From positions 1 through 30,268 of the IMG/VR virus record IMGVR_UViG_3300036713_000669: a stretch of DNA of 30,268 nucleotides. The stretch is one strand, 5' to 3'. A program made the translations under genes and the position numbers. Within the stretch, counting starts at the first letter, position 1. Each line of letters starts with the position of its first letter. The DNA comes from a virus (Duplodnaviria > Caudoviricetes). Positions 411 to 25,142 of this stretch are shown piece by piece. The notes beneath the pieces are model-generated. The model saw only the letters and a program-made list of their open reading frames with translations, was not told where the DNA came from and made no database searches.

Positions 411-1061
411 ATGAACTCATACGCGCACTTCAACTTTGAAATTGGTAATTATTTTGACAGATACTCATCTTTCGGGATGCCTAAATTAAAAACCATTGAT
501 TTTGAGTTGCCAAAAAATTTTAGATTGAAGGCATATAGACGCACAAGGATCAAAAATGTTTCAAAAGAACAAGATTTGTGCCACTTTTTTATAAACGATG
601 AATCAATGTTGACTGCTTTTTCAACACCTAAAACCACTGTTGAATATCTAAAGAATTATTACGCGGTTCTTGAACCGAATTATTCAGTATACACGGATTG
701 GCCTTTAGCCTTGAGTGTCTTTAACACTTACAGAACGCGCTGGTGTGGTAGATATTGGCAAGAGAACGGTTTAAAGGTTATCCCAACTGTAGTCTGGGGC
801 CTGAGAGACACTTACGGCTTTTGTTTTGATGGGATACCTAAAAATAGCATTATAGCAATTAGACCCCCGCCAAATTTCGGCAAGGGTTTTAATGCCAAAG
901 AAATAACTGAGTACTTGGACGGGCTAGACTTAATGCAGTTCATTCTAAAGCCAAAAATCATAATTGCTTTTGGAAAACTTGAAAAATATATCAAAAAAGA
1001 TATCGAAGTGATCACTGTAGAATCAAAGCGGAAAGATTCCAGTATCTTGGTCAGGGTTTAA
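411..1061 (+). CDS. DUF4417-family phage protein (start probably ATG 411; ORF track extends to GTG 330)
   Basis: Motifs CHFFINDE, P(N/D)YSVYTDWP, FNTYRTRW, WQENGLKVIPTVVW, FCFDGIP are characteristic of DUF4417 proteins. Confidence 0.8.
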   Translation: MNSYAHFNFEIGNYFDRYSSFGMPKLKTIDFELPKNFRLKAYRRTRIKNVSKEQDLCHFFINDESMLTAFSTPKTTVEYLKNYYAVLEPNYSVYTDWPLALSVFNTYRTRWCGRYWQENGLKVIPTVVWGLRDTYGFCFDGIPKNSIIAIRPPPNFGKGFNAKEITEYLDGLDLMQFILKPKIIIAFGKLEKYIKKDIEVITVESKRKDSSILVRV

Positions 1062-1873
1062 ACGTCATATTGACAGACTAGCCCGCCTTGTGCGACATAA
1101 AGCGTTGTTCCATTGAAATAGCAATTTGGGCTGGTTATATTTGGGAATTCGCTGGGAGCAAAGCTGCCCAACAATGTACCGCTTGAAATATCCCAAGGAG
1201 TTGATAGATTATATTGCTCGCACACATTCAGTACCACATTGGCCACGATTAGATGTTCGCCGTCAATACAAAAGGCGCTACTTGCGCGGGGTGTTGGCAC
1301 CAGTGACGATATAGAAGTTGGCTGCATTGTCGTTATATCCCAATTTGTCGTTAATGCACCTGTTTCTATCGAGTAGTTGCCGTCTCCATGTGAATAGTCC
1401 GCAGTTATCTCTGAGCCGTCACTTTTGAAATAAAAACCAGTATAATAACTACTTTCTAATGGCGGCATATCTTCGCTGCCTTCGTATGTAACGACGTTTA
1501 TATTCCAAGGGTTTGTTAGTGTGAATTTGGATATTCTTTCATAATTATCAGTTATAAACATTTTTGTGCCTGAGCTATCGACAAACATTCCGCCACTTGC
1601 AGCACTTATAACGTAAGGGCCAATCCCAAATCTATCTGTATAAACTGCTGTACTAACATCCCATGGGGTGCTTAAATTATATTGGTACACGAACTCAAGG
1701 TTGAAGTGTGTGACAAGCAAGATGTCGCCAGTTGTTGAAAAATAAATACCTCGAATACCACTAAGACGCCCAACATCTTCAAAACAGTATGTCGCGGTTG
1801 TCGAGAGCGTGGTTATATCCCAATGAGCCGTAGTGCCGGTTTGAGCTTGCGCTAACAATTTAGAGTACAGCAT
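1058..1873 (-). CDS. Beta-propeller-like repeat virion/accessory protein
   Basis: Repeated Y/FxLST/TNPWDI/V motif (QYNLSTPWDV, FTLTNPWNI, LTTNWDI, QYNLSTPWDI); last gene of the leftward structural operon. Confidence 0.6.
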   Translation of the reverse strand: MLYSKLLAQAQTGTTAHWDITTLSTTATYCFEDVGRLSGIRGIYFSTTGDILLVTHFNLEFVYQYNLSTPWDVSTAVYTDRFGIGPYVISAASGGMFVDSSGTKMFITDNYERISKFTLTNPWNINVVTYEGSEDMPPLESSYYTGFYFKSDGSEITADYSHGDGNYSIETGALTTNWDITTMQPTSISSLVPTPRASSAFCIDGEHLIVANVVLNVCEQYNLSTPWDISSGTLLGSFAPSEFPNITSPNCYFNGTTLYVAQGGLVCQYDV

Positions 1874-2384
1874 ATGTTTCTAAATCCCTTTCTGTCGAGC
1901 CCATAAAATAATTAACTTGGATATTTCTTGCCTCATCAATAGTTGGGCGTTCTGATGAAACAATTTCCAAACCGTTATATACAACTACATCCCTTAAATA
2001 AAAAGCGTATTTTTCTATATCAAATGGGAAATAAATAGGCTCGTCCGTGATATTGCCGGTTAGCTCATCAACAATGGTGGCCCTGATTACTTTTGTGCTG
2101 CCATCCTCATTTTCAATCCTTTGGTATCCCTGTTGGATGCCGGCGTTATGACCTAAGTAATGCCAAACACCTATGATTTCCGGTGCTAACCCTAAATCTG
2201 TCAAGGTGTCATTCACCGCTTGGATAGAGTTTATAGAGCTTAAATTCCCTTGATAGGCTGCACGCCCATTAATTTCACGACATTCTGGCAATTGCGATAC
2301 ATAATCGTATTGGCGAAATACTGCCATTTGCTCAGGCGTTAAATGATCAGTCATTATCGACATTGAAAAAATCACGTTATACAT
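1860..2384 (-). CDS. Hypothetical protein, paralog copy B (family also at 2387-2971 and 14601-15131)
   Basis: Intact 174-aa ORF; near-identical to the upstream copy; overlaps the start of the next gene. Confidence 0.75.
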   Translation of the reverse strand: MYNVIFSMSIMTDHLTPEQMAVFRQYDYVSQLPECREINGRAAYQGNLSSINSIQAVNDTLTDLGLAPEIIGVWHYLGHNAGIQQGYQRIENEDGSTKVIRATIVDELTGNITDEPIYFPFDIEKYAFYLRDVVVYNGLEIVSSERPTIDEARNIQVNYFMGSTERDLETYAVL

Positions 2385-3089
2385 AATTAAACCTGCTCAC
2401 CTTTTAATCGCAAATGAAAAGGAATGAAACTGTTTAGTCTTTGATTGTAAAAGAAAATTAAAACATATGTTCCTAAATCCCTTTCTGTCGAGCCCATAAA
2501 AGAAACTTGGGTATTTTTTGCCTCATCAATAGTTGGGCGTTTTGACGAAACAATTTCCAAACCGTTATATACAACTACATCCTTTAAATAAAAAGCGTAC
2601 TTTTTTATATCAAATGGAAAATAAATAGGCTCGTCCGTGATATTGCCGGTTACCTCATCAACAACGGTGGCACTGATTATTTCTGTGCCATCCTTATTTT
2701 CAATCCTTTGGTATCCCTGTTGGATGCCGGCGTTATGGCCTAAGCAATGCCAAACACCTATGATTTCCGGTGCTAACCCTAAATCTGTCAAGGTGTCATT
2801 CATCGCTTGGATAGAGCTTATAGAGCTGAAATTCCCTTGATAGGCTGCACGCCCATTAATTTCACGACATTCTGGCAATTGCGATACATAATCGTATTGG
2901 CGAAATGCTGCCATTTGCTCAGGCGTTAAATGATCAGTCATTATCGACATTGAAAAAATCACGTTATACATAATTGAACCCGCCTTACTTTTAATTGCAA
3001 AAAGGGAAAGAAACCGCCTAGCTTTTAATTGCAAAAAAGAAAAGGAAAGAAACCGCTTAGTCTTTGATTTTAAAAGAAAATTAAAATTA
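1872..3089. repeat. Tandem duplication of a ~0.6 kb leader+gene cassette (about 1872-2463 and 2464-3089)
   Basis: Direct nucleotide alignment of the two genes, plus the shared leader ttttaattttctttta(c/a)aatcaaagactaa... on the minus strand. Confidence 0.9.
2387..2971 (-). CDS. Hypothetical protein, paralog copy A (true start MYNVIF at 2971; C-terminus reads through into the duplicated leader)
   Basis: Same N-terminus as copy B with AAGG/GGCGGG upstream; ORF-track extension to 3106 is repeat-derived leader. Confidence 0.7.
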   Translation of the reverse strand: MYNVIFSMSIMTDHLTPEQMAAFRQYDYVSQLPECREINGRAAYQGNFSSISSIQAMNDTLTDLGLAPEIIGVWHCLGHNAGIQQGYQRIENKDGTEIISATVVDEVTGNITDEPIYFPFDIKKYAFYLKDVVVYNGLEIVSSKRPTIDEAKNTQVSFMGSTERDLGTYVLIFFYNQRLNSFIPFHLRLKGEQV

Positions 3090-5153
3090 TCCATTATAAA
3101 TATCAAACCTTTTAATAGTCCCGTTCCAGAATGCAGTGTTGTCGTTCTTTCTACCTATATAGAATGTGTCACCTGAGTTCATATCTCCTGAAAAACTAAC
3201 TGGAGTTGCGTAGGTGTCATTTAACTTCCCTTTTAATATATCAGGAGTCCATTCAAAGTAAATCTCATCAAGTGTGCCGTCATCACTGCTTGCGCCTAAA
3301 ATAATGGTGTTTGTCCCGTCGGTGCCTTTCAATAAACCATCTGTATCTTGATAAACCCCTGTAGCATTTCCAAAATCAACAACCCAATAAACGCCATTAG
3401 CATTAAATCTATTTGAGGTCGCTGTAATTATAATACTTCCCTTTACATCATTGAAATCATCAGTTTTTTCATACGACAATTTATCTGCAATTCTTGTAGC
3501 GGATGCGCCACCAGTAATAATAAAACTTGTAGCAAAATCACCCTGTTCAACTTGTGCGTAATCTAAAGAACCATTAACAGTACACCCTAAACTTGTAGTC
3601 GTTGTTGTTATTGTTATAGGATTTCCTTCTGTAACTGTTCCAGAACCTGCACCAGATAGCACGATATCACCAGTCCCTATAGCTGAAATTGTGTAGGAAG
3701 TGGTATTAGTAACTGTAACCGATTGAGTCGCTGGAGCATTGGAATTTAAAAATAAATTTGTTCTCTGCTCTTCAATCAATATCCCTTTTTTTGTACTTTC
3801 CGCTATATTTGAACCTACTGTCTCTGTAACTACCCCATTTCCATCAACAGTGTTCCCGTTTTCAGTCCCATAATATTTCGGGAAGAGATTAAAATTAATA
3901 AGCGTTCCGTGGTTGTTGTTACTGCTATCATAAACTATAGACCCCTCTCTCTCGTTCACATCCCAACTTCCCACTAGCTGGTCGGTCGGTGTTTGATGAT
4001 TAAAAAGTTGGGTTCTTTCTTCAGCAGAAAGAACCTTATTATAGATTCTTGTCTCTTTAATTCCGCCAGTGTACGCTGAAGTTGTCCTGTTCCCATAAAA
4101 ATTACCAATATGAAAATCTCTATCATTAGCATCAAGTAATCCTGTTACATCTTTTGTTACTACCTGAAGGACATTATCAATGTACAATCTAGCGATATTG
4201 GAATTAATTTCTAGTATTACATGTCTCCACGCACCATCATCATTAACTGCACCAGAACCCATTTGAAGATAACCAGCGGTTCCGAAATATGCAGCAAATC
4301 TACCGTTTGTTAGTTTTGCGATATTGTATCCGCCCAAATCACCCACATTCTGCCTCGTTACAATCCCTGCAATGGAGGGTTGACTGACTGCTTGTGCATA
4401 CACAGAAACCGTGAAATTATTGGTTAATGCTAAAGCGGGGATTAATCCCATGTTTATATAGCCGCTCCCGTCAAAATTCAAATACTCGCTTTGCCATTGA
4501 GGCAAGGTAAATTCAGAGGGGTTTTGGTTCGATTGGCCATTAACAACCTCAAGTTGTTTTTGAGATACATAAAAAGGAGTGGTACCTTGTGGCCGCAGTA
4601 CAAACATAACATCCTGTGAACTAGGAACTACCGAAAAATCAGATGGAGTAGATACTCTTTGCCATTCTGTAGTTACTGAAATTGTTTTTTGTACAGTTGC
4701 GAAACCTCTCATAAAAAAATCAGTTGTTCCAACAATAACATCGATAGGAGTATCAGCTCTTAGCCATACAGAACCAGTAACCTCTAAACCCACAAAAGAA
4801 TTTAAATCACCAGAACGAAGACACCCAAGCCTTGTGTTGGCGGTAGTTGTCGATACCTCATTTGCCATTTTACCATTATTCACAGCCCCATCGCCGATTG
4901 TCCATACACCATCAATCGTTCTAAAGTCAGAGGTGGAGTATGTATTAATGGCGTAGTTGTAGACTCTCCTTGCACCCTCAAATCTAGCCTCTCCTGTGAG
5001 AGATTGTTTTTGTAGCTCTTCAAAATCAGTGACTATAGCAGTTGAATTTCTTTCAAATAAAGCGTCGTATAGTGAGCTAGAAAAATTCAACACTGAAATA
5101 AGAGTATTGCGGATAGAGGATTGAAAAATCCCTAACGTGGTACCAAGTAACAT
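3087..5153 (-). CDS. Head spike fibre-like protein with LamG/concanavalin and carbohydrate-binding domains
   Basis: GILIEEQRTNL and AQVEQGDFATSFI..T..SATRIAD motifs as in Rcc01080-type head fibres; LamG-like segment (DGAWRHV...LYIDN...GGIKETRIYNKVLS); follows the spike base gene; GGAG RBS before ATG 5153. Confidence 0.75.
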   Translation of the reverse strand: MLLGTTLGIFQSSIRNTLISVLNFSSSLYDALFERNSTAIVTDFEELQKQSLTGEARFEGARRVYNYAINTYSTSDFRTIDGVWTIGDGAVNNGKMANEVSTTTANTRLGCLRSGDLNSFVGLEVTGSVWLRADTPIDVIVGTTDFFMRGFATVQKTISVTTEWQRVSTPSDFSVVPSSQDVMFVLRPQGTTPFYVSQKQLEVVNGQSNQNPSEFTLPQWQSEYLNFDGSGYINMGLIPALALTNNFTVSVYAQAVSQPSIAGIVTRQNVGDLGGYNIAKLTNGRFAAYFGTAGYLQMGSGAVNDDGAWRHVILEINSNIARLYIDNVLQVVTKDVTGLLDANDRDFHIGNFYGNRTTSAYTGGIKETRIYNKVLSAEERTQLFNHQTPTDQLVGSWDVNEREGSIVYDSSNNNHGTLINFNLFPKYYGTENGNTVDGNGVVTETVGSNIAESTKKGILIEEQRTNLFLNSNAPATQSVTVTNTTSYTISAIGTGDIVLSGAGSGTVTEGNPITITTTTTSLGCTVNGSLDYAQVEQGDFATSFIITGGASATRIADKLSYEKTDDFNDVKGSIIITATSNRFNANGVYWVVDFGNATGVYQDTDGLLKGTDGTNTIILGASSDDGTLDEIYFEWTPDILKGKLNDTYATPVSFSGDMNSGDTFYIGRKNDNTAFWNGTIKRFDIYNG

Positions 5154-5166
5154 TACTTTATCTCCG

Positions 5167-5427
5167 TTATGCCAATGCAACCAAACTGGTAGCAGTCGTA
5201 TCTGTATCGAAAACTCTTATAAATTGCCCAACTAAGATAAATCCTGCCGGCAAATTGACAAAAGTTGCCTCGTCCTCAAATAATGTTAAAGCTTTTATAT
5301 TGCCGGCTGCCCCAATATATATACCGCGTGTAACAAAATCCAAGTTTATAGAGTCGCTTGGAACTATGGCCACTGCTCTTGCTGGTGGCGCAAGTAATCC
5401 AGTTGTGTATTGATTATATTCGTCCAT
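5167..5427 (-). CDS. Head spike base protein (RcGTA Rcc01079-like)
   Basis: PPARAVAIVPSD...TRGIYIGAAGNI...FVNLPAG...RVFDTDTTA signature. Confidence 0.8.
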   Translation of the reverse strand: MDEYNQYTTGLLAPPARAVAIVPSDSINLDFVTRGIYIGAAGNIKALTLFEDEATFVNLPAGFILVGQFIRVFDTDTTATSLVALA

Positions 5428-5438
5428 ATTTTTTCTCT

Positions 5439-5468
5439 AAAAAAAAGGGCACCAGTAATGATGCCCTA
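5439..5468 (-). terminator. Intrinsic terminator after the capsid genes
   Basis: Minus strand AGGGCATC-attactg-GTGCCC followed by a T-run. Confidence 0.7.
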
Positions 5469-5515
5469 GTGATAAATAAATAGCTTGTGATTATTTTGGT
5501 GTGACAACTGTCAGC

Positions 5516-5971
5516 TTATCCTTTGCTTAAAAGGACAGCTTTAATTGTACCAGTTGCACCCGTAGCAGCTACCTCAGTAGCTGTAAGTATTACCAGCCTA
5601 TCTTCGTTTGAAGAATCCATAAAAGCTAAATCCGGCTTATTTACGTGGACAATATTTGTCGCGCCAGTTTGGCAAAAGTCGGAGTCTGCCATAAATAAAT
5701 CTTCGTCGCCTGATGCTATAGTGCCGTCTTTGTCGCCAACACCTACGTCAAAAGTAATTGTAGGCGTGCCATCCGTGTCTAATGGAGTATTGACATAAAG
5801 AATCAAATCAACAGGGATTTCGCCGGCGGGAATTCTAAGTAACTCAATAGTATCATCCGCTTCAATGTCGCCACCTACTATTTCAATTACGCCAGTGTTT
5901 GCAGTAATTGTTGACGCTGCACTTGAGAATGAAGAACTTTTTTTGGATGCTACAGATTGATAAATAGCCAT
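5516..5971 (-). CDS. Capsid-associated (decoration/cement-like) protein
   Basis: Immediately downstream of MCP with GGAG RBS; DTIELLRIPAG...LDTDGTPTITFDVG motif typical of post-MCP genes. Confidence 0.6.
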   Translation of the reverse strand: MAIYQSVASKKSSSFSSAASTITANTGVIEIVGGDIEADDTIELLRIPAGEIPVDLILYVNTPLDTDGTPTITFDVGVGDKDGTIASGDEDLFMADSDFCQTGATNIVHVNKPDLAFMDSSNEDRLVILTATEVAATGATGTIKAVLLSKG

Positions 5972-5982
5972 TAATTTGTCTC

Positions 5983-7089
5983 CTAAGTAGGTTCTGTCGC
6001 TGCGGTATCAATTGCCATAACACCAAAGTCTTGAGAGTTGAAACGCGCTTTTTTAGTGCCAAAGATTGAGCTTGTCGAAATAATAGCAAGGTTGCCATTG
6101 TCGCGTGTGGTTTCGTACCAATCATAATGGACTTCTGCGGGGCCACTCTTTCCATACGCAAAAGATAAAGCTTGGACACCTAAAAATAATGCGCGTGCTG
6201 CCTCTACGTCGCCGCCTGCACCATAATCATCAAACCTAATAACTTTTGGATGCGAGTGCAAAACAACGCCGTTATAAACGCCTAATTTACCTGTAAAGAT
6301 TGGGCTGGTTGCCCCGTCTGTAGCAGCCGCTGCTTTTTGTATATCAAGCCATGAGCCCGTATCTGTGCTTGTGCGTAAATCGTATTCCTGCCACGGATTT
6401 AGCAAGCAAACATAAAACTCTGATCCGGACAATCTTATTGGCTGCAATGAAATAGTACCATTTGCACCTCCACCAAGCATTGACGCTTTAGCTTTGGCTT
6501 TATCCACCAAATTTAATGTGAATTTGTCAGCAGCGACTAAGTCAGCTTTGCCGGTTGCATCGCCGCCATACATTTGATGAGTAGCGTCCGGGGTCTCAAG
6601 AGAGTTGTTAGCTCTACCGGTGTAGTCTGTACCTAAAATAAAATCGTCGTTTATACCTCTAGCACCTGATGCGTAGATAAAACAGAGTTCATCTACAAAT
6701 CGACTCCACCAGTCTGACTCTTTCTCTAAAGCTGCGGCCCGTAAATCATGTATAGTCCGCTTCCTAGTCATTTTCCCACCGCTATTGACCCCACTCCTCG
6801 CTTGGTCAATATACATTACATCAGAATGAAAAACTAGGTTTTCTTCTGTACCTTCTTGGAGACTGTCGCCTTCAATCGGGGCGTTCTTTAATTGCATGAT
6901 TAAATCATAGGTGATTTGTTCACCTTTTGATTTTTCAAGGTCATCAAAAACCAAGACCGGTAACTTCGATGACGGAGGGCCCATAAACCTTGAAGCCCAG
7001 TAACTTTGTTTTGGAGTATCTGAAGATAGAGCGGTACTCCACCTTTTAACAGCCTTTGCGTCATTTAATGGTATCTGAGTAGTCGGCAT
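5983..7089 (-). CDS. Major capsid protein, N4-gp56 / DUF4043 family
   Basis: AVKRWS, KGEQITYDL, IEGD..EGTEE, YIDQAR, RTIHDLR, PIFTG.LG.YNGVVLH, KKARFN..DFGV motifs. Confidence 0.92.
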   Translation of the reverse strand: MPTTQIPLNDAKAVKRWSTALSSDTPKQSYWASRFMGPPSSKLPVLVFDDLEKSKGEQITYDLIMQLKNAPIEGDSLQEGTEENLVFHSDVMYIDQARSGVNSGGKMTRKRTIHDLRAAALEKESDWWSRFVDELCFIYASGARGINDDFILGTDYTGRANNSLETPDATHQMYGGDATGKADLVAADKFTLNLVDKAKAKASMLGGGANGTISLQPIRLSGSEFYVCLLNPWQEYDLRTSTDTGSWLDIQKAAAATDGATSPIFTGKLGVYNGVVLHSHPKVIRFDDYGAGGDVEAARALFLGVQALSFAYGKSGPAEVHYDWYETTRDNGNLAIISTSSIFGTKKARFNSQDFGVMAIDTAATEPT

Positions 7090-7099
7090 TTTAAATCCT

Positions 7100-7759
7100 C
7101 TATTGTGAAGCTAGATAATTGTTACGTTCCTGAGCAGATAACGCTTGAAATGCATCCGCTAATTTCTTGCCTTTTAGCTGATCTAGCTGCTCAAAGATAC
7201 TATCCGGTGTCTTATTGCCGTCAATATCCCTAATAGAATTGGGGGCTGGTACAGGGTTTGTAGAATATCCTCTAAAACCGCCCAAGCTATCAGATGCTTT
7301 TTGCATTATCTCTAATGACGCATATTCTGCACCTTCGTCTTTTTTCATCTTTTCAACTATCCCATTGAATGCAGCATTAATGATAGGGTCGTTTTGGATA
7401 TCTGGATTTTGAGAAAAAAAGATTTTTTTCTCATTGGTTTCACTGACTTGCTTTAACCGGCTATCTATTTGAGATGATATCAAATCTTGTATCTTTTTAA
7501 CATCAAAACCGCCATCTTTAGGCTCCTTTGTAGTAGCTGGAGGTGTGGCCACGATATCTGGAGGTTGCGCCACTGGTTTTGATGCAGTAGCAGGGACTAT
7601 TGAATCGTCCGTCGTTGCTGTCGCCGCCTTTTTAGGGCTTGCAACTGGTTTATCTTTTGGCGGCTCTGGTTTATCCGTCTTGCCTTGAGGGACTGTATTG
7701 TCCACGTCCAACTGCTTTGGCTTGTCTGGTGCGTCTGTCGTTGCATTGTCACTCATCAC
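7100..7759 (-). CDS. Putative scaffolding protein
   Basis: Between portal and MCP; low-complexity Pro/Lys/Ala N-terminus; C-terminal ...LSAQERNNYL motif. Confidence 0.65.
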   Translation of the reverse strand: MMSDNATTDAPDKPKQLDVDNTVPQGKTDKPEPPKDKPVASPKKAATATTDDSIVPATASKPVAQPPDIVATPPATTKEPKDGGFDVKKIQDLISSQIDSRLKQVSETNEKKIFFSQNPDIQNDPIINAAFNGIVEKMKKDEGAEYASLEIMQKASDSLGGFRGYSTNPVPAPNSIRDIDGNKTPDSIFEQLDQLKGKKLADAFQALSAQERNNYLASQ

Positions 7760-7772
7760 TTTTCCTTTAAAA

Positions 7773-9278
7773 TTAACCTGTAGTTACCGATTGTATTGAT
7801 GCGCTACGAGTGCTTTCTGGTAACGCACGCTTACCTTGTTTATTTAACAACCTTATCCTATCAACCATCTCATCCTTCATGGCAAAATCTGTGCTCTCTA
7901 TCAACAAATCAAGCAAGTTTAAGACTACATCTGGCTCTAAATTCTGCAAAAGTGCCGACATCATGGCAAATTGGGCGCGTCTTTCAGAGTATGCGAACGG
8001 CCTTAATGAAACAATAAAATCAACATGATGATCCAATAAGGTTTGATTTTTCAATGAATAAGTCTCAACTTCTTCTATACTTTTTTCAGTAATGACACTA
8101 AATTTAGTGTTTTTCATATAAATTGCGGATAATTGCAATAAATAATTGCCCGCAGATTTTATATGGGATTGCAAATTTTCAAAGATTTCTTTGGTGGCAA
8201 TATACGCTTGCCTTTGTTTAAGTGAAATAGCCTCGCCACTTAATTCCTTTGTTGTCTCACCTAATATTTCATCAGATAAGCCGGCAATATCCTTGATGTA
8301 TTGTTTATCTTCGTCAGCCAACTCAATATGTTCTTTAGCTATATTGATATGGTCAGTTATCTCAAGATCAAACCCTGAGTTTTTAACAATGATCCCGTCG
8401 GGCCTAGCTAACTCCTCTTCAAAGTCGCTGATATCTGAAATTGCGCCCGCTTCGATCACCGCTTGTTTTGAAATAAGGAGTGACAACGCTTTGCTGCGGC
8501 GTTTGTTTAAATCTGTCTGGGCATCTTTAATATTTCGCGTGATGCCGTATGGTAATTTGCTCAGCCCATCTCTGTACGCCCATATTGGGATGTAAGGAAA
8601 TTTGCCCGCTGGATATGGGGAGTCGGTTGGTGGCGTGATGAATTGGCCATCGCCTGTAAGTATTGCATATTTTACCACATCTTTATTAACTTTATACCAA
8701 CACTCTAACAAGAGTGAATGAGCATTAGAATCTGCAAAAATAAGAGTGCTAGGGTAATTGTGACTCAATACGTCGTTTTTTACATATTTAGCTCTGAATA
8801 TGTATTTAGCGTCTCTCAGGTCAGGCTTTATAGAGTTTATATCCCAATACATCTCGCGCCAGTCAATATAATTAATTGCAAAGTCATCTTGATCTCTGCC
8901 GTATTCAACCCAACCAATGCCGACTCGTATTGCATCCTCAAAGGCAGCACCCCATTCTTGCATAACATTATGTTTATCAGAGATATATTTAAAAACCTTG
9001 GTTTGAAAATCGGCTGCCTTCACGTCACTATTGTTTCTGGGCAATACTTGCCAATCCATTTTCATCTCTGAAAACGTCCCTTTATACCAGCGTATGATCC
9101 TTAGGATGTTATTGAACACAAGTGGGGCTTGCCCGCGTGTCTCAAGTACATATCTCTCTTCAGGTGTCCATTGCTCACCGTCACAAAAGCGAGAATCTTC
9201 TTCTTGTTTTAATCTATTCGCAAGGTGTAATCTTTGAGTCTCACTCCACCATTCAAGTATTTTAGCTTCGTCATTCAT
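7773..9278 (-). CDS. Portal protein (P22-like)
   Basis: DGEQWTPEE..LE.RGQAPLVFN, AF.DA...GIGW, FPYIPIW.YR, PYG..RN.KD.Q.DLNKRRSKAL, SG.AI..KQ motifs. Confidence 0.9.
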   Translation of the reverse strand: MNDEAKILEWWSETQRLHLANRLKQEEDSRFCDGEQWTPEERYVLETRGQAPLVFNNILRIIRWYKGTFSEMKMDWQVLPRNNSDVKAADFQTKVFKYISDKHNVMQEWGAAFEDAIRVGIGWVEYGRDQDDFAINYIDWREMYWDINSIKPDLRDAKYIFRAKYVKNDVLSHNYPSTLIFADSNAHSLLLECWYKVNKDVVKYAILTGDGQFITPPTDSPYPAGKFPYIPIWAYRDGLSKLPYGITRNIKDAQTDLNKRRSKALSLLISKQAVIEAGAISDISDFEEELARPDGIIVKNSGFDLEITDHINIAKEHIELADEDKQYIKDIAGLSDEILGETTKELSGEAISLKQRQAYIATKEIFENLQSHIKSAGNYLLQLSAIYMKNTKFSVITEKSIEEVETYSLKNQTLLDHHVDFIVSLRPFAYSERRAQFAMMSALLQNLEPDVVLNLLDLLIESTDFAMKDEMVDRIRLLNKQGKRALPESTRSASIQSVTTG

Positions 9279-9282
9279 AAAA

Positions 9283-9430
9283 CCGCCCAGCATTTAATTG
9301 TAAAAAGAAAAAAAAACAATACCCGCCGCAAGGCCGAGATATCGCCCAGTAGCAAAATGCAAAAAAAGAAAACTGAACACCCGCCGCAAGGCCGAGATAT
9401 CGCCCAGTAGCAAAATGCAAAAAAAAAAGG
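9283..9430 (-). repeat. Diverged ~58-bp repeat array (about 2.5 units) directly upstream of the portal start
   Basis: CGCCCAG cores at 9284, 9343, 9401, each followed by aaTG(C/T)AAAAA; same family as the 24.8 and 29.4 kb arrays. Confidence 0.85.
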
Positions 9431-9431
9431 T

Positions 9432-9737
9432 TTATTTACCAAATATATATGGCCGATGTGAAAATAAATCAGGCACCGCGTCAATAACTTGGCGTATCAA
9501 TTTCTTAATCTCACTGGGGTTTAAATTTATCGCTTTTCCAAATATGACCGCGTTATGAATAAGAGCTTTTGTCGGACTACCATCATGTGTGACAAATAGA
9601 TGAGCGTTATCAATATGTATACCCCAACTAAGGTGTGTTTTATTTGCATCTAATATAAGCCCTGGCTTTACTATACCCTCAACATTGATATACGCCAACA
9701 AGATTGAGTATGAATTATTTCTGTAGATTGTCTTCAT
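9432..9737 (-). CDS. Hypothetical protein preceding the portal
   Basis: Clean 101-aa ORF overlapping the terS 3' end, in operon orientation. Confidence 0.7.
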   Translation of the reverse strand: MKTIYRNNSYSILLAYINVEGIVKPGLILDANKTHLSWGIHIDNAHLFVTHDGSPTKALIHNAVIFGKAINLNPSEIKKLIRQVIDAVPDLFSHRPYIFGK

Positions 9738-10290
9738 CTTCGCTTAAAATACCTTGATATATATCAGAAAATATCTGTTCTTGCCTTGATTGTTCATCAA
9801 ATAGCTTTAAATATTTTGACAACATTATCCGACTATTATTTTTGTCAACAAACTTGTATTGTACAACAGTTTTTTTCTCACCATCTTTTTCTGTTTGCGT
9901 CACTTGTAGATTTTGAATAGCACTGGAGCAATGACTAGGGAGTTGGTGAATTGGAATAAGGTTTCCATTCTCATCGAATAGATCGCTAGGATTGAAAAAA
10001 GCACTCTCCGCAATTGATTGTATAACCTTTTCTGAAGTTATCGCATATTTATCTTTAATTTCATCCAGTAAATTTTTTAACTCCTCTTGCACTGGAGTTG
10101 AGTTAAAGTATCTATGGGCTAAATTTCTGATAGTATTCCAATTTTTCCCTTTATGTTGCGGGAAGGTCGCTAAAAACGACTTCTTGACATTTTGGGATGC
10201 CAAATAATGGGCACAAAAAATCTCTTGGTTTTTAACTGATATGTCGAATCTATTCGGTATCACCTCTAACTGATTTGATAAGGTTTCCAT
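9715..10290 (-). CDS. terS: Terminase small subunit
   Basis: N-terminal HTH (QEIFCAHYL...), then ITSEKVIQSIAESAFFNPSDLFDENGNLIPIHQLP...KFVDK..S..ML.KYL, typical of Terminase_2-like TerS. Confidence 0.85.
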   Translation of the reverse strand: METLSNQLEVIPNRFDISVKNQEIFCAHYLASQNVKKSFLATFPQHKGKNWNTIRNLAHRYFNSTPVQEELKNLLDEIKDKYAITSEKVIQSIAESAFFNPSDLFDENGNLIPIHQLPSHCSSAIQNLQVTQTEKDGEKKTVVQYKFVDKNNSRIMLSKYLKLFDEQSRQEQIFSDIYQGILSEDEDNLQK

Positions 10291-11781
10291 ATGTTCCCTT
10301 CTGACGTAAAAGATAAATTAAAGGCTTGTTTCTCAAGTCAAGAGTGGCGGCTAAACAACTTATACTACATAATCGACAGAGAAGGTAAGAAAGTGTTGTT
10401 TAAATGCCGCCCACAGCAAAAAATGTTATTTGATGATATGAAGGATTTTAACATTATTTTGAAGGCACGCCAATTAGGTTTCTCAACCGCTATATGTATA
10501 TATATATTGGATAGCTGCTTATTTAAATCAAATGTACGCGCCGCCATCATTACGCATACAAGAGAAGATTCTCAATTTTTGTTTAGGGATAAGATAAAAT
10601 TTGCGTACAACAGTTTGCCGGCGATGATAAAAAAACAAGTGCAAGCTGACACAAACACCAGCTCAGTTGTTTATTTTAGCAATAATAGCAATATCCGAGT
10701 CGGGACTTCAATGCGTTCAAGCACACTAAATATCTTGCATGTTAGTGAGTTGGGTAAAATATCCGTAAAATATCCCGAAAAAGCACGCGAGATTAAAACT
10801 GGTGCTTTTAATGCAATCCATGATGGCCAAAAAGTCTTTGTTGAATCTACAGCCGAAGGGAAGGTGGGCTTGTTCTACGAATTATGTAAGGCCGCTGAAA
10901 ACAACACATTGGGCAATAATGTCAAAATGTTCTTTTTCCCTTGGCATGACAACCCTGATTATAGATTGTCCAATGCAAAATTGAACCTTACTGATTCTGA
11001 GCGCGAATATTTTGACCGGCTGAAAACTGTGAAAGAACTTGGATTAACAATGCCACAAAAATATTGGTATGTAAACAAATGGCGTAAACAAAGATTAGGA
11101 GGCGGAGACTCAATGCATCAGGAATATCCATCGTATCCAGAAGAGGCTTTTGAAATACCTATTGTTGGGGCGTATTTCGGCAAGGAAATTGCCAAATTGT
11201 ATGACGAAGGCAGGATAACGTCATTTTCACATGAACCCTCAGTACCAGTGAATACCTTTTGGGATATTGGTTATAATGACACAACCGCGATATGGTTTCA
11301 TCAAAGAATCGGGTTAGAGGATAGGTTTATAGATTATTATGAAGAGAATGGTGAGGTCTTGGCGCATTATGTAAAGATGCTGACAAATAAGCCGTATGTT
11401 TATGGGGGCCACTTTCTCCCGCATGATATAAAGGTTCACGATATTAGTAGGCCGGATAGAAAAAGTCGGCTAGAGGTATTGGCAGAGTTGGGATTGAGAA
11501 ATCTTTATGTAGTGCCAAAGGCTAAAGATTTGTCAAATTCAGTGGAGATGATCAGGGAAGTATTGCCGAGCTGTTGGTTTGAAAAAGAAAAATGTGCCCA
11601 CGGATTATCTGCGCTTGAAAATTATAGAAAAACTTGGAGTGATGCACTAGACAGATTCACTAAACCATTCCACAATTGGGCCTCAAATGGTACTGATGCC
11701 TTTAGGATGTTTGCTACCGGATATATACCGGAGTTGAAAAAAAGTAAAGGTCGAGAGAGGCAGAACTGGAAAACAGTTTAG
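10291..11781 (+). CDS. terL: Terminase large subunit
   Basis: WRLNNLY, Walker A ILKARQLGFST, Walker B ILHVSELG, ESTAEG coupling motif, QEYPS.PEEAF, nuclease WDIG..D and H.WASNGTDAFR. Confidence 0.95.
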   Translation: MFPSDVKDKLKACFSSQEWRLNNLYYIIDREGKKVLFKCRPQQKMLFDDMKDFNIILKARQLGFSTAICIYILDSCLFKSNVRAAIITHTREDSQFLFRDKIKFAYNSLPAMIKKQVQADTNTSSVVYFSNNSNIRVGTSMRSSTLNILHVSELGKISVKYPEKAREIKTGAFNAIHDGQKVFVESTAEGKVGLFYELCKAAENNTLGNNVKMFFFPWHDNPDYRLSNAKLNLTDSEREYFDRLKTVKELGLTMPQKYWYVNKWRKQRLGGGDSMHQEYPSYPEEAFEIPIVGAYFGKEIAKLYDEGRITSFSHEPSVPVNTFWDIGYNDTTAIWFHQRIGLEDRFIDYYEENGEVLAHYVKMLTNKPYVYGGHFLPHDIKVHDISRPDRKSRLEVLAELGLRNLYVVPKAKDLSNSVEMIREVLPSCWFEKEKCAHGLSALENYRKTWSDALDRFTKPFHNWASNGTDAFRMFATGYIPELKKSKGRERQNWKTV

Positions 11782-11800
11782 TGAAATAGCTTTGCGTCTC

Positions 11801-11860
11801 TTGGGGCGGGTGGGCGGGGACATAAAGAGGGTGAATGTTTTTGGGGCGGGTGGGCGGGGA
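11801..11860 (+). repeat. Two GGGGCGGGTGGGCGGGG G-quadruplex-type repeats
   Basis: Exact copies at 11803-11819 and 11843-11859. Confidence 0.9.
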
Positions 11861-11869
11861 TAAAATGTT

Positions 11870-12217
11870 ATGAATGAATTGGTTCAAAAAATGGCTGAAA
11901 TTGAAAAGCACCTTGCGAGTCAAAATGGGAGCTTTAAACTTTTCGCCTTATTTCTTAGAGATGGATCGCCAGACAAGTGGGATGTTTTGGTTTCTGCCGA
12001 CTGGATTAATGCTGATAAACGACAAGCATTGAAGATAATTGTCCAACAATTGACCACTAAACTCAATAAAGATGAACTCATATCTTTGTCTCGCGTTGTT
12101 GTTATTGATAAAGACAATCAAGGTTTATCTGAAATAAACACTGAAATACATGACGAGAACATCTTAGGTTTAGATATAAAGTATGGGTTTTTAATTTCAT
12201 CTCAAGGGATAAAATAG
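11870..12217 (+). CDS. Conserved hypothetical (moron-like) protein
   Basis: 115-aa ORF with FALFLRDGSPDKWDVLVSA.W motif; flanked by G-rich direct repeats. Confidence 0.75.
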   Translation: MNELVQKMAEIEKHLASQNGSFKLFALFLRDGSPDKWDVLVSADWINADKRQALKIIVQQLTTKLNKDELISLSRVVVIDKDNQGLSEINTEIHDENILGLDIKYGFLISSQGIK

Positions 12218-12229
12218 TTCTTGTGTTTC

Positions 12230-12296
12230 TTGGGGCGGGTGGGCGGGGACACTATAGGGAGGGCGGGCGGGGATATCGGGTGTGGTGGGCGGGGAC
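12230..12296 (+). repeat. Three further G-rich repeats (one exact, two variants)
   Basis: 12232-12248 exact; 12257-12272 GGGAGGGCGGGCGGGG; 12278-12294 GGGTGTGGTGGGCGGGG. Confidence 0.9.
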
Positions 12297-12504
12297 TACT
12301 ATGTTGCTTGTTTATGCAATAGAGTATGGACGCTTAAATTTATCGAAGTTATTTGAATGCTGGCGCGAATTACTAAAGTTGTAGCTGAAGGTGGTTTACT
12401 GCTGGTATGAAATATTGAAGTGGTAGTTTGTAGCGCAAGTATGAGATTGATAGCACTTTGGAAATTTTGAAAAACCGAGATAGCACGCGGGCTACGGCGT
12501 ACCA

Positions 12505-12930
12505 TTTAAATAAAACCCTTATTTATCAATACCGTACAAAGATATGGGGTTGGCGCGGTTAAGCAAAAATCCAACCCCAAGCTCAACCCCAAGAGCCATT
12601 TATATATAAAACAATGACTTAACCCCCAAATACGGTTGGCGGGGTTAAAAAGCCTCTATATATATATAGGGGTGTAATATAGAGGATTTCCTAATATTTT
12701 GACTCCCTATACGTGTGGATATAGACTTTCAACCCCGTCAACCCCACTTGAAATAAATACTCTTTAAAAACAATGATTTATAAAAAATCAAAAACTTGGA
12801 TTTTTTTGGAAAAAAAAATAAGAAATTCCGTAAGTATTTGTTCTATATAGAAAACTTGGTGATTTGGCGGCTATGGGGTTGAAAGTGGGGTTGGGATGGG
12901 GTTGAAGTGGGGTTGGAAATTTCAACCCCA
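12505..12930. promoter_or_regulatory. Putative replication origin (GGGGTTG iterons in both orientations, IHF-like boxes, central AT palindrome)
   Basis: GGGGTTG/CAACCCC at 12546, 12572, 12584, 12730, 12739, 12875, 12887, 12898, 12909, 12923; AAAACAATGA(C/T)TTA twice; cctctatatatatatagggg at 12653-12672; no credible ORF. Confidence 0.6.
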
Positions 12931-13027
12931 TATGATGGCTTGTGCCCATAACTATATTAGCGATTGATGATATTGGGCGATAAGATATGCTGGTTTGAAA
13001 CAATGAAAAAAATTGGAGGCAAATATA

Positions 13028-13444
13028 GTGAGTGAATTTTTGATTGACTTCGATGAGTACAAACAGGAATATATAACTGAGCACTTTAAGATTTCTGAGT
13101 TTAGATCAAAGGATGGCGCGGAGATGTCGGATGAGGTGAGGTTTAACATTGTGACATTAGCCAAACAACTAGAGGTTTTGCGTAGTGTCTTAAAAGTGCC
13201 GATACACATTAATAGTGGATATCGTAGCACGGCATACAATCTAGCAGTCGGCGGTGTGTATAACAGTTATCACGTATTGGGTAAAGCTGCCGACATATGG
13301 ACAAAAGAAGTGCGGCCTAAAGAGATAGCATCAACCTTACAATCTTTAATGCGTAACGGAGACATATATATTGGCGGTATTGGTTTGTACAAAACGTTTG
13401 TGCATTATGATATTAGGCTACAGCATAGGTTTTGGTATGGTTAA
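13028..13444 (+). CDS. Peptidase M15A-family endolysin (D-Ala-D-Ala carboxypeptidase fold)
   Basis: HFKISEF, PIHINSGYRS..YN..VGG..NSYH..GKAADI, GIGLY.TFVHYD.R; GGAGG RBS before GTG 13028. Confidence 0.88.
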   Translation: MSEFLIDFDEYKQEYITEHFKISEFRSKDGAEMSDEVRFNIVTLAKQLEVLRSVLKVPIHINSGYRSTAYNLAVGGVYNSYHVLGKAADIWTKEVRPKEIASTLQSLMRNGDIYIGGIGLYKTFVHYDIRLQHRFWYG

Positions 13445-13449
13445 AATTG

Positions 13450-13522
13450 TGGGCCTGGTAGGACTCGAACCTACAACCAATCAATAATGAGTCAAGTGCT
13501 CTACCAATTGAGCTACAGGCCC
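13450..13522 (-). tRNA. tRNA with CAT anticodon (Ile2/Met-like), atypical anticodon arm, possibly pseudo
   Basis: GGGCCTG acceptor stem paired with CAGGCCC, D arm GCTC-AATTGGTA-GAGC, T arm GTAGG-TTCGAGT-CCTAC; anticodon loop CTCATTA; 3' end ACAA. Confidence 0.85.
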
Positions 13523-13560
13523 TTTAATAAAGTGAACATATTACCAGATTGGCCAAAGGA

Positions 13561-13589
13561 TTGACAGTATTTGCTCTGGGCTTTAAAAT
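13561..13589 (+). promoter_or_regulatory. Near-consensus sigma70 promoter upstream of the mini-array
   Basis: TTGACA-17 bp-TAAAAT. Confidence 0.75.
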
Positions 13590-13631
13590 ACTCGCGGCAT
13601 AAATTGCTTTAAATAGGCAAGCGAGTATGAT

Positions 13632-13723
13632 GTTACAGAACCCTATAAGGGGTTATGAGTCAAACGGATGGCTGGATAGTTATGGAAAACCTCAAGTTAC
13701 AGAACCCCATGAGGGATATAGAT
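13632..13723 (+). CRISPR. Cas-less single-spacer CRISPR-like mini-array (28-bp repeat, 36-bp spacer, degenerate repeat)
   Basis: R1 GTTACAGAACCCTATAAGGGGTTATGAG (13632-13659), spacer 13660-13695, R2 GTTACAGAACCCCATGAGGGATATAGAT (13696-13723); 21/28 identical; AACCC/GGGTT hairpin. Confidence 0.65.
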
Positions 13724-13764
13724 GCACGCGAACCCAACACCTTAATTGAAATAAGCAAAAAGAC

Positions 13765-13794
13765 TTGACACGCTCTATCTTAAATTGAGATAAT
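13765..13794 (+). promoter_or_regulatory. Second sigma70-like promoter
   Basis: TTGACA-18 bp-GATAAT with TGn extension. Confidence 0.55.
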
Positions 13795-13799
13795 CCGCT

Positions 13800-13965
13800 A
13801 TGATTTAAACTATACCTCAAGCGGTTAGTAAGGTGATGCATTTGGGCAAAAATGTGGTGTAAATACCACATATCCTCTCCTTCCTCTGCTAAAAGTCCGG
13901 AGTCGTTTGTCCCACCTTAAATTAATCGTGTGTGCCGTCGTTGGTAGCGGCGGCATACCTTATTC
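13800..13965 (+). ncRNA. Candidate ~160-nt small RNA
   Basis: Promoter upstream, internal ATGTGGT-gtaaat-ACCACAT hairpin, CT-rich tract, terminal 13-bp hairpin 13930-13958 whose G-U pairs favour the + strand. Confidence 0.4.
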
Positions 13966-14181
13966 TTAATTCTCAATCAGTTTATCCTTAACTTTGTTGT
14001 AACGATAAAGCTTATACTTCTCAACTAAGTTATTGAAAGCTGTATCCAGATTTACAGTACCCCATTCTGGAGTCAATTCACTTCTGATTACTGCCCACCG
14101 ATTCATCCCAATATTGGTACAGCCAACTATAGCGTATTCACATTCCGTTAATGTGATCCAATCTTCATCATTTTCAGCCAC
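13966..14181 (-). CDS. Hypothetical protein
   Basis: 71-aa ORF with AAGGA RBS; divergent from the holin. Confidence 0.55.
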   Translation of the reverse strand: MAENDEDWITLTECEYAIVGCTNIGMNRWAVIRSELTPEWGTVNLDTAFNNLVEKYKLYRYNKVKDKLIEN

Positions 14182-14245
14182 AATATTATCCTTTTATGTT
14201 AATTTGGGCGATATCAATACTAATAATAACTTATGGAGTGAAAAA

Positions 14246-14608
14246 ATGGTAGATTGGAATCCAATTGTCGATTTTGTTAATATACTCGTAGGATTTTTGC
14301 CATACTTATTTTTAGGGATATTGGGCGGCGTAGTGGGATTGTTTATGAATGGCACTTGCGATAACGGCTGTGGTATCGTCATCGTAATAAAACGATGTGT
14401 AGTCTCTGCATTTGTTTCTTGCCTAGCATTTTTTTTAGCCTCAGAGCTTGCGCTAACAGATAACTATAAGATGTTGTTGGTGGGAGTGTCTGGGTTTGTG
14501 TCGTTAGATATATTGCCGTTGCTTCGGGAATATACGCTAAAGTTTTTTGAAGGGTGGGCTAAAGGAGAAAAGGGGACTCCCTTAAATAAGAGGATTGGTA
14601 ATGTATAA
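14246..14608 (+). CDS. Putative holin (LydA-like)
   Basis: Several hydrophobic helices (LFLGILGGVVG, VVSAFVSCLAFF, LLVGVSGF), basic C-terminus; GGAG RBS before ATG 14246. Confidence 0.7.
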   Translation: MVDWNPIVDFVNILVGFLPYLFLGILGGVVGLFMNGTCDNGCGIVIVIKRCVVSAFVSCLAFFLASELALTDNYKMLLVGVSGFVSLDILPLLREYTLKFFEGWAKGEKGTPLNKRIGNV

Positions 14609-15131
14609 CATAATCTTTACAATAGAAGATATGCATGGCGCAAAATTAATGGCACTTTTGCAATACCTAAAGAGTAAGTTTAGGTTTGTGCATTTAATAC
14701 CGGAGATGCGGAAAGTGGATGGGCGCGTAGCATATCAGGGCAATGTAAGTACTTTGCCCGCAGTAAGAACCTTGAGGTCGGAATTAAGTATTATAGGTGT
14801 GGATTGTGACGTGATAGGAGTCTGGCAGACGGAGGGTAAGAACGCGGGATTACAGCAGGGATACACATTAGCGAATGTGACTGATGATATCGCCCCAGAA
14901 TACAAAGTGGTTAGGGCTAAGGTTGTGGAGCAAACAGACCTCTCTGTTATTGATGAGGCAATAGTCCACCCGTTTAATTTCAATGAATACCGTAAATTTT
15001 TAATTGACCGAGTGACGGTTAATGATGAACATAAAGTTGTGCGGAGTAGGCCCACCGCAAGGGAGGCTCAAGACACACAGGTGGCCTCTTTTTTTGCAAA
15101 TAAAAAAAGGGACTTAACAACTTATGTGTAG
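14601..15131 (+). CDS. Hypothetical protein, distant third paralog of the 1860-2971 pair
   Basis: Shares MYNxIF, PE.R..GR.AYQGN, IGVW...G.NAG.QQGY, RPT..EA...QV..F, RDL.TY. Confidence 0.8.
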   Translation: MYNIIFTIEDMHGAKLMALLQYLKSKFRFVHLIPEMRKVDGRVAYQGNVSTLPAVRTLRSELSIIGVDCDVIGVWQTEGKNAGLQQGYTLANVTDDIAPEYKVVRAKVVEQTDLSVIDEAIVHPFNFNEYRKFLIDRVTVNDEHKVVRSRPTAREAQDTQVASFFANKKRDLTTYV

Positions 15132-19550: not shown

Positions 19551-19763
19551 TTAATCTCTCAAGATTATTTCGTCGTCCGTCAGTTTAGCAATTAAATTAC
19601 TGTATCGCACGGGGATTAGTTTTTTCTCAAACCACTTACTAGGCGTAGAGCTATGGATGCCCGCAAATTTTGTAAACTCGGCCTGCGAGCCATACTTAAC
19701 AAGCATAGCCATTTTTATTGCCCGGATGTTTCGTTTGGTTAATTTCGTTTGGATAGTTTTCAT
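19551..19763 (-). CDS. Cro-like HTH protein
   Basis: KYGSQAEFTKFAGIHSSTPSKW; first gene of the replication operon; AGGTG RBS. Confidence 0.65.
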   Translation of the reverse strand: MKTIQTKLTKRNIRAIKMAMLVKYGSQAEFTKFAGIHSSTPSKWFEKKLIPVRYSNLIAKLTDDEIILRD

Positions 19764-19812
19764 ATAAACTTCACCTTTATCAAAATAAATCATCATTAAT
19801 CAATCTGGGGCG

Positions 19813-19874: not shown

Positions 19875-20726
19875 ATGAAATTTAAAATACCCGCTTTGCA
19901 CGCCACTTTTTGGCGTGTGTATGAAAAAATAAATGCTGGACGTGAGAAAAGTATCGCTTGCAAATTTAGTCGCGAAGATAGGACTTTATTGCGGAAAATA
20001 TTAGGTAATCACACATTAAATGATAGTTTGATAAGGGTATCGGGTCTGGCAAAGGAGTATGCGAGTGAGTATGTCGGTGATAGTGAAGTGCATACAGCAT
20101 ATTATAGGTTTATGCGGAGGTTCCAACGAGATAGGATTCCGCATATTATGGTTGGTCGTCAGTTATACACCAAACGTGGTGTCACAAAGTGGAGAGATTT
20201 TAAGTTGACCAAAGCGGAGCGTGTATATTGGACTATATTAATAAAGCTTAATGAAGTGGCAAACAGACGCACCTTGAAATGCCGATTTACAAGATTTGAA
20301 ACTGATTTCCTTTTGAAGACTTTAAAAAACCACCCACTTTACAAAAGCTTAATACCTTTACCGGAGTTTGTGCGTAAACTATTTTTAATAAGGCGAGAAT
20401 ATTTATATAGAAGTCTTTATAACCGTTACATAGGACGGATTAGAAGAGGATATATCCCAGCTTTGAAGGTTGGTGGTAGATGGTTTATGCGTGTAGAGAC
20501 GTTTAAGGAATTTGAATATATTGAACTCAATGGTGGTGAAAAGACCTCACTAAAGCGCGAAACGCGGGAATTTAAAAAAATAGCGAGTATAATAAAAAAA
20601 GAAAATCTTGCCCCCACCCCAGAACTATTGATTACCCGTTTTGAAATGTCGGGCTACAAGAGCTTTCTATTTTTAGAGTATTATGATCATCATCATTTAA
20701 ACATTGAGTCAACGGAGCAACCATAA
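19875..20726 (+). CDS. Basic putative DNA-binding protein with an internal tandem domain duplication
   Basis: Two ~105-aa units each ending in an excisionase/HTH_17-like wing (IPHIMVGRQLY; IPALKVGGRWF). Confidence 0.6.
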   Translation: MKFKIPALHATFWRVYEKINAGREKSIACKFSREDRTLLRKILGNHTLNDSLIRVSGLAKEYASEYVGDSEVHTAYYRFMRRFQRDRIPHIMVGRQLYTKRGVTKWRDFKLTKAERVYWTILIKLNEVANRRTLKCRFTRFETDFLLKTLKNHPLYKSLIPLPEFVRKLFLIRREYLYRSLYNRYIGRIRRGYIPALKVGGRWFMRVETFKEFEYIELNGGEKTSLKRETREFKKIASIIKKENLAPTPELLITRFEMSGYKSFLFLEYYDHHHLNIESTEQP

Positions 20727-20819: not shown

Positions 20820-21107
20820 ATGCGGAAAAATAAGACTGATAAAAATCAGAAGGCAATTTGTGCTGGTTTGCAAAAGGTAGGAGCCACAGTAGCATACCTG
20901 CAAGGCGTAAAGGGCGGATGCCCTGACTTAATAGTCGGGTATAAGGGCAAAAACTACCTATTTGAAATAAAGAACCCAGAGACAAATGGCCAACTAAATG
21001 ATTTACAAAAAGAATTTTTTGCAAATTGGAAAGGGCAAGTAGTTGTGATCAAAACATTAAAGGAAGCTTATGGATTTCTTGGAATTGAGAGAAACGTTAC
21101 GGCTTAG
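20820..21107 (+). CDS. VRR-NUC / PD-(D/E)xK nuclease (resolvase-like)
   Basis: D.NQ..I, GCPDLIVGY, LFEIK, L...QKEF..W. Confidence 0.85.
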   Translation: MRKNKTDKNQKAICAGLQKVGATVAYLQGVKGGCPDLIVGYKGKNYLFEIKNPETNGQLNDLQKEFFANWKGQVVVIKTLKEAYGFLGIERNVTA

Positions 21108-22283: not shown

Positions 22284-22285
22284 TT

Positions 22286-22525
22286 ATGATATTTGATAGT
22301 ATTTTCATCTCTCGCGTGTCAGAAGTGCAAGTCAGCGATATAGCTGATAATACCGGTAATTGTGCGGGTTTATATATTGGGAGCGGTGGAGATTTGAAAG
22401 TAGCTTTACAGTCAGGTGATACCGCAGTATTTAAAAACCTTCCAGACAATACCTTTTTGACTGGTTATTTTGCGCGTGTGTTTTCAACCAATACAACATG
22501 CAGCGACATATTAGCAATCTCATAA
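22286..22525 (+). CDS. Second spike-base (Rcc01079-like) paralog
   Basis: GLYIGSGGDLKV...FKNLP...FL.GYF.RVF.T.TT; aligns with 5167-5427. Confidence 0.7.
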   Translation: MIFDSIFISRVSEVQVSDIADNTGNCAGLYIGSGGDLKVALQSGDTAVFKNLPDNTFLTGYFARVFSTNTTCSDILAIS

Positions 22526-22538
22526 GGATGGTTAAATT

Positions 22539-23711: not shown

Positions 23712-23720
23712 AGGGAGATT

Positions 23721-24140: not shown

Positions 24141-24146
24141 AGAATA

Positions 24147-25120: not shown

Positions 25121-25142
25121 TGGAGCTAGGATTGGATAAACT

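Follow-up and report, generated by a model that had tools for sequence, protein, structure and literature searches.

In an uncultured phage present in sediment metagenome runs, the genes for the small and large terminase subunits, terS and terL, lie head to head on opposite strands with 0 nt between their start codons. The layout is real, derived and unusual, and it joins two known kinds of arrangement: its halves are separately precedented, divergent terL by phage P2 and zero-gap divergent starts by the overlapping starts of queG/nnr in Escherichia coli, and its weight is limited, as only one phage population is known to carry it. Regulation at the junction is predicted from sequence. As a rule, abutting genes on a single mRNA supply the terminase subunits in a fixed ratio; the present case shows that this coupling can be broken, and the two genes placed start to start, with purifying selection on terL maintained. 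At 400 nt, the junction would make a small natural cassette for studying the effect of overlapping divergent initiation regions on dose or timing, and it suits asking whether one TAAGGT serves as a ribosome site or as a −10 box.

The junction, its start codons and the encoded proteins

The window analyzed here is the entire 30,268-nt contig, which encodes a P22-like portal, a Phage_capsid_3 major capsid protein, a primase, RecE/RecT, an endolysin, a holin-like gene and a tRNA-Met. The features in and around the terminase genes are as follows.

7773-9293, minus strand: P22-like portal gene, likely start 9278 (profile matches), followed by a scaffold-like gene and the major capsid protein gene
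9284-9429, minus strand: 57-nt-family repeat in three copies, immediately preceding the portal start (repeat analysis)
9432-9737, minus strand: gene for a 101-aa protein whose family is found between terL and portal in relatives (HMM, E 1.8e-9)
9715-10290, minus strand: terS, terminase small subunit, 191 aa (Pfam PF03592, Terminase_2; phrog_51)
10288-10293, no strand assigned: CATATG, both start codons back to back (sequence), unchanged in the strain variant L243
10291-11781, plus strand: terL, terminase large subunit, 496 aa, intact (phrog_2, PHROG terminase large subunit, E 4e-26)
11803-11859, plus strand: two G-quadruplex-type motifs (four G-runs), directly after the terL stop (sequence)

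The zero-spacer arrangement at CAT/ATG described in the initial annotation is upheld by reading frame coordinates, profile matches and strain contigs, all of which agree, and both frames open with ATG. The start of terL is predicted firmly, because an in-frame TAA at 10279-10281 caps the frame upstream and bars extension, the conserved W-R-L-N-N-L-Y motif starts at residue 19 (W19) and so matches the homologues' median position of 19 (109/119 homologues), and the next Met is residue 45, a start at which would drop the motif. The initial annotation had considered that true starts at downstream Met codons might leave a normal spacer; for terL this fails on the loss of the motif, while for terS a GTG at codon 10 is possible. 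The terS start at ATG 10290 is accordingly less firm than that of terL, but it is probable because this GTG, the only nearby alternative, lacks a Shine-Dalgarno (SD) sequence. Were terS truly to start there (10263), the spacer would be 27 nt and the zero gap an annotation effect. The first 16 residues of TerS are not conserved, and its N-terminus is about 10 residues longer than that of the median homologue (query residue 21 aligns to median position 11 in 114 of 149 matches), with 26 of 114 homologues as long. We nonetheless consider the GTG start highly unlikely, given a duplex energy of −1.3 kcal/mol before the GTG versus −5.3 kcal/mol before the ATG; moreover, 27 nt would still be too short for two promoters, so the overlap would persist.

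Both proteins are clear members of their families. TerS scores 53.4 bits against PF03592 (curated cut-off 26.1) over residues 22-171. In TerL, Lys58, Arg60, Gln61, Gly63, Glu153, Thr187, Asp325 and Asp469 are invariant in 35 sequences, leaving the catalytic residues intact; we take these to be the residues of Walker A, Walker B, the coupling motif and the acidic nuclease site. The terL family is that of the nearest capsid relatives, with a strong match in 11 of 80 capsid loci, the best one included, and terL composition matches the GC of the genome; family membership and composition together rule out a recent import of the gene. Unusual terL frame lengths (about 400 to 780 aa) were seen in the related loci L100, L134, L127, L136, L154 and L158, and several odd-length frames match only in their N-terminal 260-295 residues, which suggests fusions or swapped nuclease domains.

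Misassembly can in practice be dismissed. The spanning sequence that the initial annotation had proposed as a check exists: the junction at 10290/10291 is crossed by two Logan contigs of a possible source sample, X1 (9396-14500) and X2 (9396-12251), by X4, a 229-nt contig from another study (10218-10446, 2 differences, depth 2), and by the separately assembled L243. No joints are listed in contigs over the junction; in a fourth run, read to 75%, X3 has no piece over 10118-11142. L243 is 98.7% identical to the window, aligns over 10083-13374 with 42 mismatches and 0 gaps, and is the same at CATATG. Its changes in terL are 14 synonymous and 2 non-synonymous, and terL is under purifying selection; in the 208 nt of terS that L243 covers, two codons differ, both at the contig end. 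An assembly error, or an element gone dead through loss of expression of one gene, might be suspected in a genome that is heavily reshuffled and contains duplicated genes, but either is extremely unlikely in view of the four crossing sequences, the synonymous excess in terL and two frames that are open and full length. A 387-nt block that spans the junction (10098-10484) is unchanged in L243 (P about 0.02), with the end of the L243 contig as its left edge. Evidence for extra constraint on this block is weak, and such constraint is not established because X4 differs twice somewhere in 10218-10446.

Comparison with relatives and known systems

The premise that terS and terL are normally co-oriented and adjacent is confirmed by the relatives. 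Among 184 fetched loci with a terL match, 114 also have a terS HMM match (70 do not), and the two genes are co-oriented in all 114 with both strands searched; some of these loci are near-duplicates and the set does not amount to 114 independent lineages. A same-strand frame ends at the terL start in 148 of the 156 loci with enough upstream DNA, and 45 of 50 co-oriented frames tested match terS families. Minus-strand frames before terL in many relatives were considered as terS candidates and rejected as shadow frames, since 0 of 20 match a terS family; this family test covered 50 of the 148 co-oriented and 20 of the 112 minus-strand candidates. The terS-terL gap is an overlap or at most 10 nt in 64 of 76 measurable pairs, a range that the available text of one study links to translational coupling (PMC10666635). 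In the canonical operon, terS immediately precedes a co-oriented terL; the two genes here occupy opposite strands.

A second line of evidence comes from the gene for the 101-aa protein, which overlaps the end of terS by 23 nt. All 36 loci of relatives that have both genes place this family behind terL, on the same strand; here it follows terS, in keeping with the claim that terL was flipped out of the operon. Because of this displacement and of the uniform co-orientation among relatives, the layout is judged from sequence comparison to be derived. Ochrobactrum phage POI1126 (NC_070932; Namazuvirus-like), whose TerS is the only phage-record match of the TerS in the window, likewise has terS, terL, a small gene, portal, scaffold and capsid genes. 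It differs in that the order terS-terL-small gene-portal is co-oriented, with terS 3 nt before terL, whereas terL of the window lies inverted, ahead of terS. The position of the 101-aa gene and the POI1126 order therefore suggest an ancestral order terS-terL-hypothetical-portal, from which terL would have been taken from between terS and the 101-aa gene and inverted before terS, probably by at least two inversions or by one inverted move of terL.

The search for the same divergent layout among relatives, as proposed in the initial annotation, found it in none beyond strain level (0 of 114 loci). Searches with terL, terS and portal found no relatives at about 52-98% identity: the best terL homologue is at 52%, terS homologues appear at 30-40% identity by full search and not by word search, and portal has no homologues among viral contigs. 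The terS search of contigs returned two distant loci, one of which (L255) is co-oriented, and the 101-aa gene matches only itself. At present, a single phage population is known to carry the layout. Because no relative of intermediate identity was found, the sequence of events cannot be established, nor can selection on the layout be demonstrated.

Divergent transcription of terL departs from the norm when set against the 114 relatives, but not absolutely, as P2-like phages already transcribe terL divergently. In phage P2 (NC_001895; operons PQ and ONML), terL is divergent from an operon with terS and the capsid gene, as it is here. By way of contrast, 173 nt separate the P2 operons, a spacer that holds back-to-back start sites (3016, 3127) and an activator site common to both, and P2 terL precedes portal, with the scaffold gene opposite; in the window, the spacer is 0 nt, terL faces terS and portal lies on the terS side. 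The window thus shares with P2 a terL divergent from the terS operon and lacks the spacer, the shared activator and the order of terL then portal. No-spacer, head-to-head starts are found in E. coli at queG/nnr, which overlap by 2 nt at CATG with an SD-like GAGGGG inside queG, and at tesA/ybbA, which overlap by 33 nt. Both pairs are among 16 divergent excludons in the accessible part of the source (PMC12288877). The E. coli cases are chromosomal genes of unrelated functions with RNA-seq support, whereas the genes here encode two subunits of one phage enzyme and are known from sequence only. Two partner proteins are also encoded divergently in diversity-generating retroelement (DGR) architecture B3, TR-(avd)-RT, in which avd is reversed, although that layout, as far as the available portion of the report goes, is recurrent in its lineage (PMC5758913), whereas the terS/terL layout occurs in one phage population only. 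We found no published report of start-to-start terS/terL in the largely open-access literature searched.

Initiation signals and predicted transcript overlap

The candidate signals near the junction are listed below.

10128-10136, plus strand: candidate extended −10 for a leadered terL mRNA, inside terS (TGATAGTAT; sequence)
10260-10266, minus strand: GAGGTGA, a strong SD without a start codon behind it, in terS codons 9-11 (4 copies in the window)
10276-10284, plus strand: TG-A-TAAGGT, an exact extended −10 (TGnTAnnnT), candidate leaderless promoter (0.0014 per position)
10279-10283, plus strand: TAAGG, SD-like for terL, in terS codons 3-4, containing an in-frame stop (−4.0 kcal/mol)
10296-10301, minus strand: GAAGGG, SD-like for terS, in terL codons 2-4 (−5.3 kcal/mol)
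10445-10473, minus strand: candidate sigma-70 promoter for terS, inside terL (TTGGCG-17-TAAAAT, extended TG), predicted start ~10438

Each gene does carry an SD-like sequence within the first codons of the other, as first described: TAAGG lies 7 nt before the terL ATG, and AAGGG (10300-10296, minus strand) 5 nt before the terS ATG. Both are ordinary in strength, the duplex energies over 32 starts in the genome ranging from +1.1 to −15.4 kcal/mol and random windows reaching those of terS and terL in 18% and 28% of cases, respectively. The energies are those of the duplex with the anti-SD sequence. A 4-mer SD core at a spacing of 4-10 occurs at 6.5% of positions and on both sides of a site by chance at 0.4%; among the eight CATATG sites in the window, the junction is the only one with an SD core on both sides. 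The paired SDs support the plausibility of both starts. They do not show that the overlap was selected for regulation, because any working gene needs an initiation signal. The initial annotation had read them as the mark of an evolved layout and not a misassembly; the layout is indeed genuine, on the strength of the spanning contigs, but the SDs attest only to plausible starts.

Given this geometry, the promoters of terS and terL would have to sit in or beyond the opposite gene, as had been proposed. The accompanying claim, that the mRNAs overlap across both initiation regions, does not follow of necessity, since terL has an exact leaderless signature: TG-A-TAAGGT ends 6 nt before its ATG, where the −10 of a leaderless mRNA would lie. 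By this geometry, the leader of at least one gene must be antisense over the start of the other, except where neither mRNA has a leader. There is no −10 at the leaderless register of terS, and the 9 kb upstream of terL are free of same-strand genes; at least the leader of terS is therefore predicted to run antisense over the terL start. The candidate at 10128 is the only other plus-strand extended −10 in 9430-10300. It and the nearest minus-strand extended −10 (10453, −35 TTGGCG) each lie 162.5 nt from the junction, a mirror symmetry that was noticed after the fact, with exact mirror pairs at 24 of 29468 centres.

Neither strand has a stable RNA structure at the junction (z −1.0 to +1.95), and neither an Rfam family nor wider dyad symmetry was detected there; the mirror identity of 24% rules out a fold-back duplication as the origin of the junction. 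No motif is common to the regions upstream of terS and terL and other module heads. Two TAACTGA heptamers (10233-10239 and 10267-10273, plus strand), both in terS, occur within 35 nt upstream of terL, and the window contains 10 such heptamers versus 3.8 expected; TAACTGA is a motif of Beggiatoaceae.

Our leading reading, held tentatively, is that terL has left the operon and stands head to head with terS, that both genes are intact and likely co-expressed late, and that their overlapping leaders damp expression and set dose, and do not act as a switch. The last spacer would have been lost through 5′ extension of terS, to which the longer N-terminus and the stranded GAGGTGA, possibly a relic of an older terS start, would both testify; 5′ elongation is a route named for divergent overlaps in the accessible text of one study (PMC2716372). 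Late co-expression from face-to-face predicted promoters near 10128 (plus) and 10453-10473 (minus), each inside the other gene, would give an overlap of ~295 nt, and the antisense leaders would damp both genes via polymerase interference or RNase III. Such damping may set the TerS/TerL dose, replacing the translational coupling of relatives. Set against this, promoter-like sites are at chance level (11 found versus 10.5 expected), the TerS N-terminus is within the length range of its homologues, and the terL leaderless signature competes with a leadered mRNA. Ranking next, and unlikely, is the possibility that terL is leaderless from TG-A-TAAGGT and terS leadered from inside terL, a one-way control in which the terS leader would cover the terL AUG and TerL would be held down whenever terS is transcribed. 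The exactness and register of the signature speak for it, as do its occurrence at 1 of 27 correctly placed starts (30 rows, of which 3 were misplaced and left out), the lack of any 9-of-12 plus-strand promoter between 9200 and 10290, and the missing terS counterpart, by which terS must be leadered. However, TAAGGT without the TG lies in the same register before an operon-internal helix-turn-helix (HTH) gene at 15762 and is there most simply read as an SD, and the occurrence of the signature at no other start in the window gives no sign that the host favors leaderless mRNAs.

A true excludon switch, in which TerS and head proteins are made first and TerL later, each excluding the other, is quite unlikely. 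A strict switch would fit the excludon definition as worded in the available part of its source (PMC7154746), and the geometry is that of the divergent excludons of E. coli. Furthermore, non-contiguous operons silence genes at set stages in Staphylococcus aureus phage 80alpha, for which the accessible text describes four (PMC11034616), and stable proteins could be made in sequence. A non-contiguous operon at the present locus, enclosing terL within one co-transcribed unit, would require a minus-strand mRNA that begins past 11781 and traverses terL. On the other hand, the layout occurs in none of the 114 relatives and is one of several apparent breaks, and the divergent packaging operons of P2 share one activator site. 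The initial annotation had gone further in proposing that the split separates capsid synthesis from the packaging motor. That version is doubtful because TerS, on the capsid side, is half of the motor, such that the split falls between two subunits of one enzyme, and because the repeat array between terS and portal (9284-9429) may uncouple terS from the capsid genes; the order hypothetical-portal-scaffold-capsid behind terS was correctly given, but the array interrupts it between hypothetical gene and portal. Of similarly slight probability is a selected antisense circuit that replaces coupling, in which mirror promoters and interlocked signals make TerS and TerL alternately, the cutting subunit coming after TerS and proheads. 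If true, overlapping coding sequence alone would encode a timer for packaging.

A reshuffled late operon

Beyond the junction, the terS/terL flip appears to be one break among several in a late operon whose order has been reshuffled. In relatives, the virion genes form a single co-oriented run, with adaptor, tube and fibre genes following the capsid gene on one strand. Here they are split into 1058-10290 (minus), 21070-24782 (plus) and 26818-27477 (plus), the latter two blocks holding the adaptor, tube and fibre genes and being separated by RecE/RecT (25143-26821).

The 57-nt repeat family forms intergenic arrays of 2 to 11 copies at 2982-3043, 9284-9429, 24790-25131, 27543-27692 and 29445-30048. 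Arrays lie directly upstream of, and in the same sense as, the portal gene, a 239-aa gene, the RecE-like gene and a 158-aa gene (28805); they occur in both orientations and could be regulatory or inversion sites. The repeat consensus pattern has no exact match in viral contigs. A terminator role for the repeat is unproven because, in the sense orientation, it folds no better than shuffles.

Several other features of the window are of note. G-quadruplex-type motifs, in a genome of 40% GC, recur at 12232-12297, 12887-12912 and 60-171 in addition to those behind terL (11803-11859), and a 17-mer with four G-runs, C-rich on the minus strand and present in three exact copies, flanks a 115-aa gene after terL. 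Duplicated genes at 1860-3106 form a tandem pair that is 93-96% identical, with a diverged third copy at 14595-15131 behind the holin-like gene, and two phrog_12296 paralogues lie at 5167-5427 and 22286-22525. The tRNA-Met (CAT) gene at 13449-13522 (minus) directly follows the endolysin gene on the opposite strand. A second divergent pair, 19875-20726 (plus) and 19551-19796 (minus), has a 78-nt spacer; its 283-aa gene has weak helix-turn-helix look-alikes and an 11-A run before the ATG, making it a candidate regulator.
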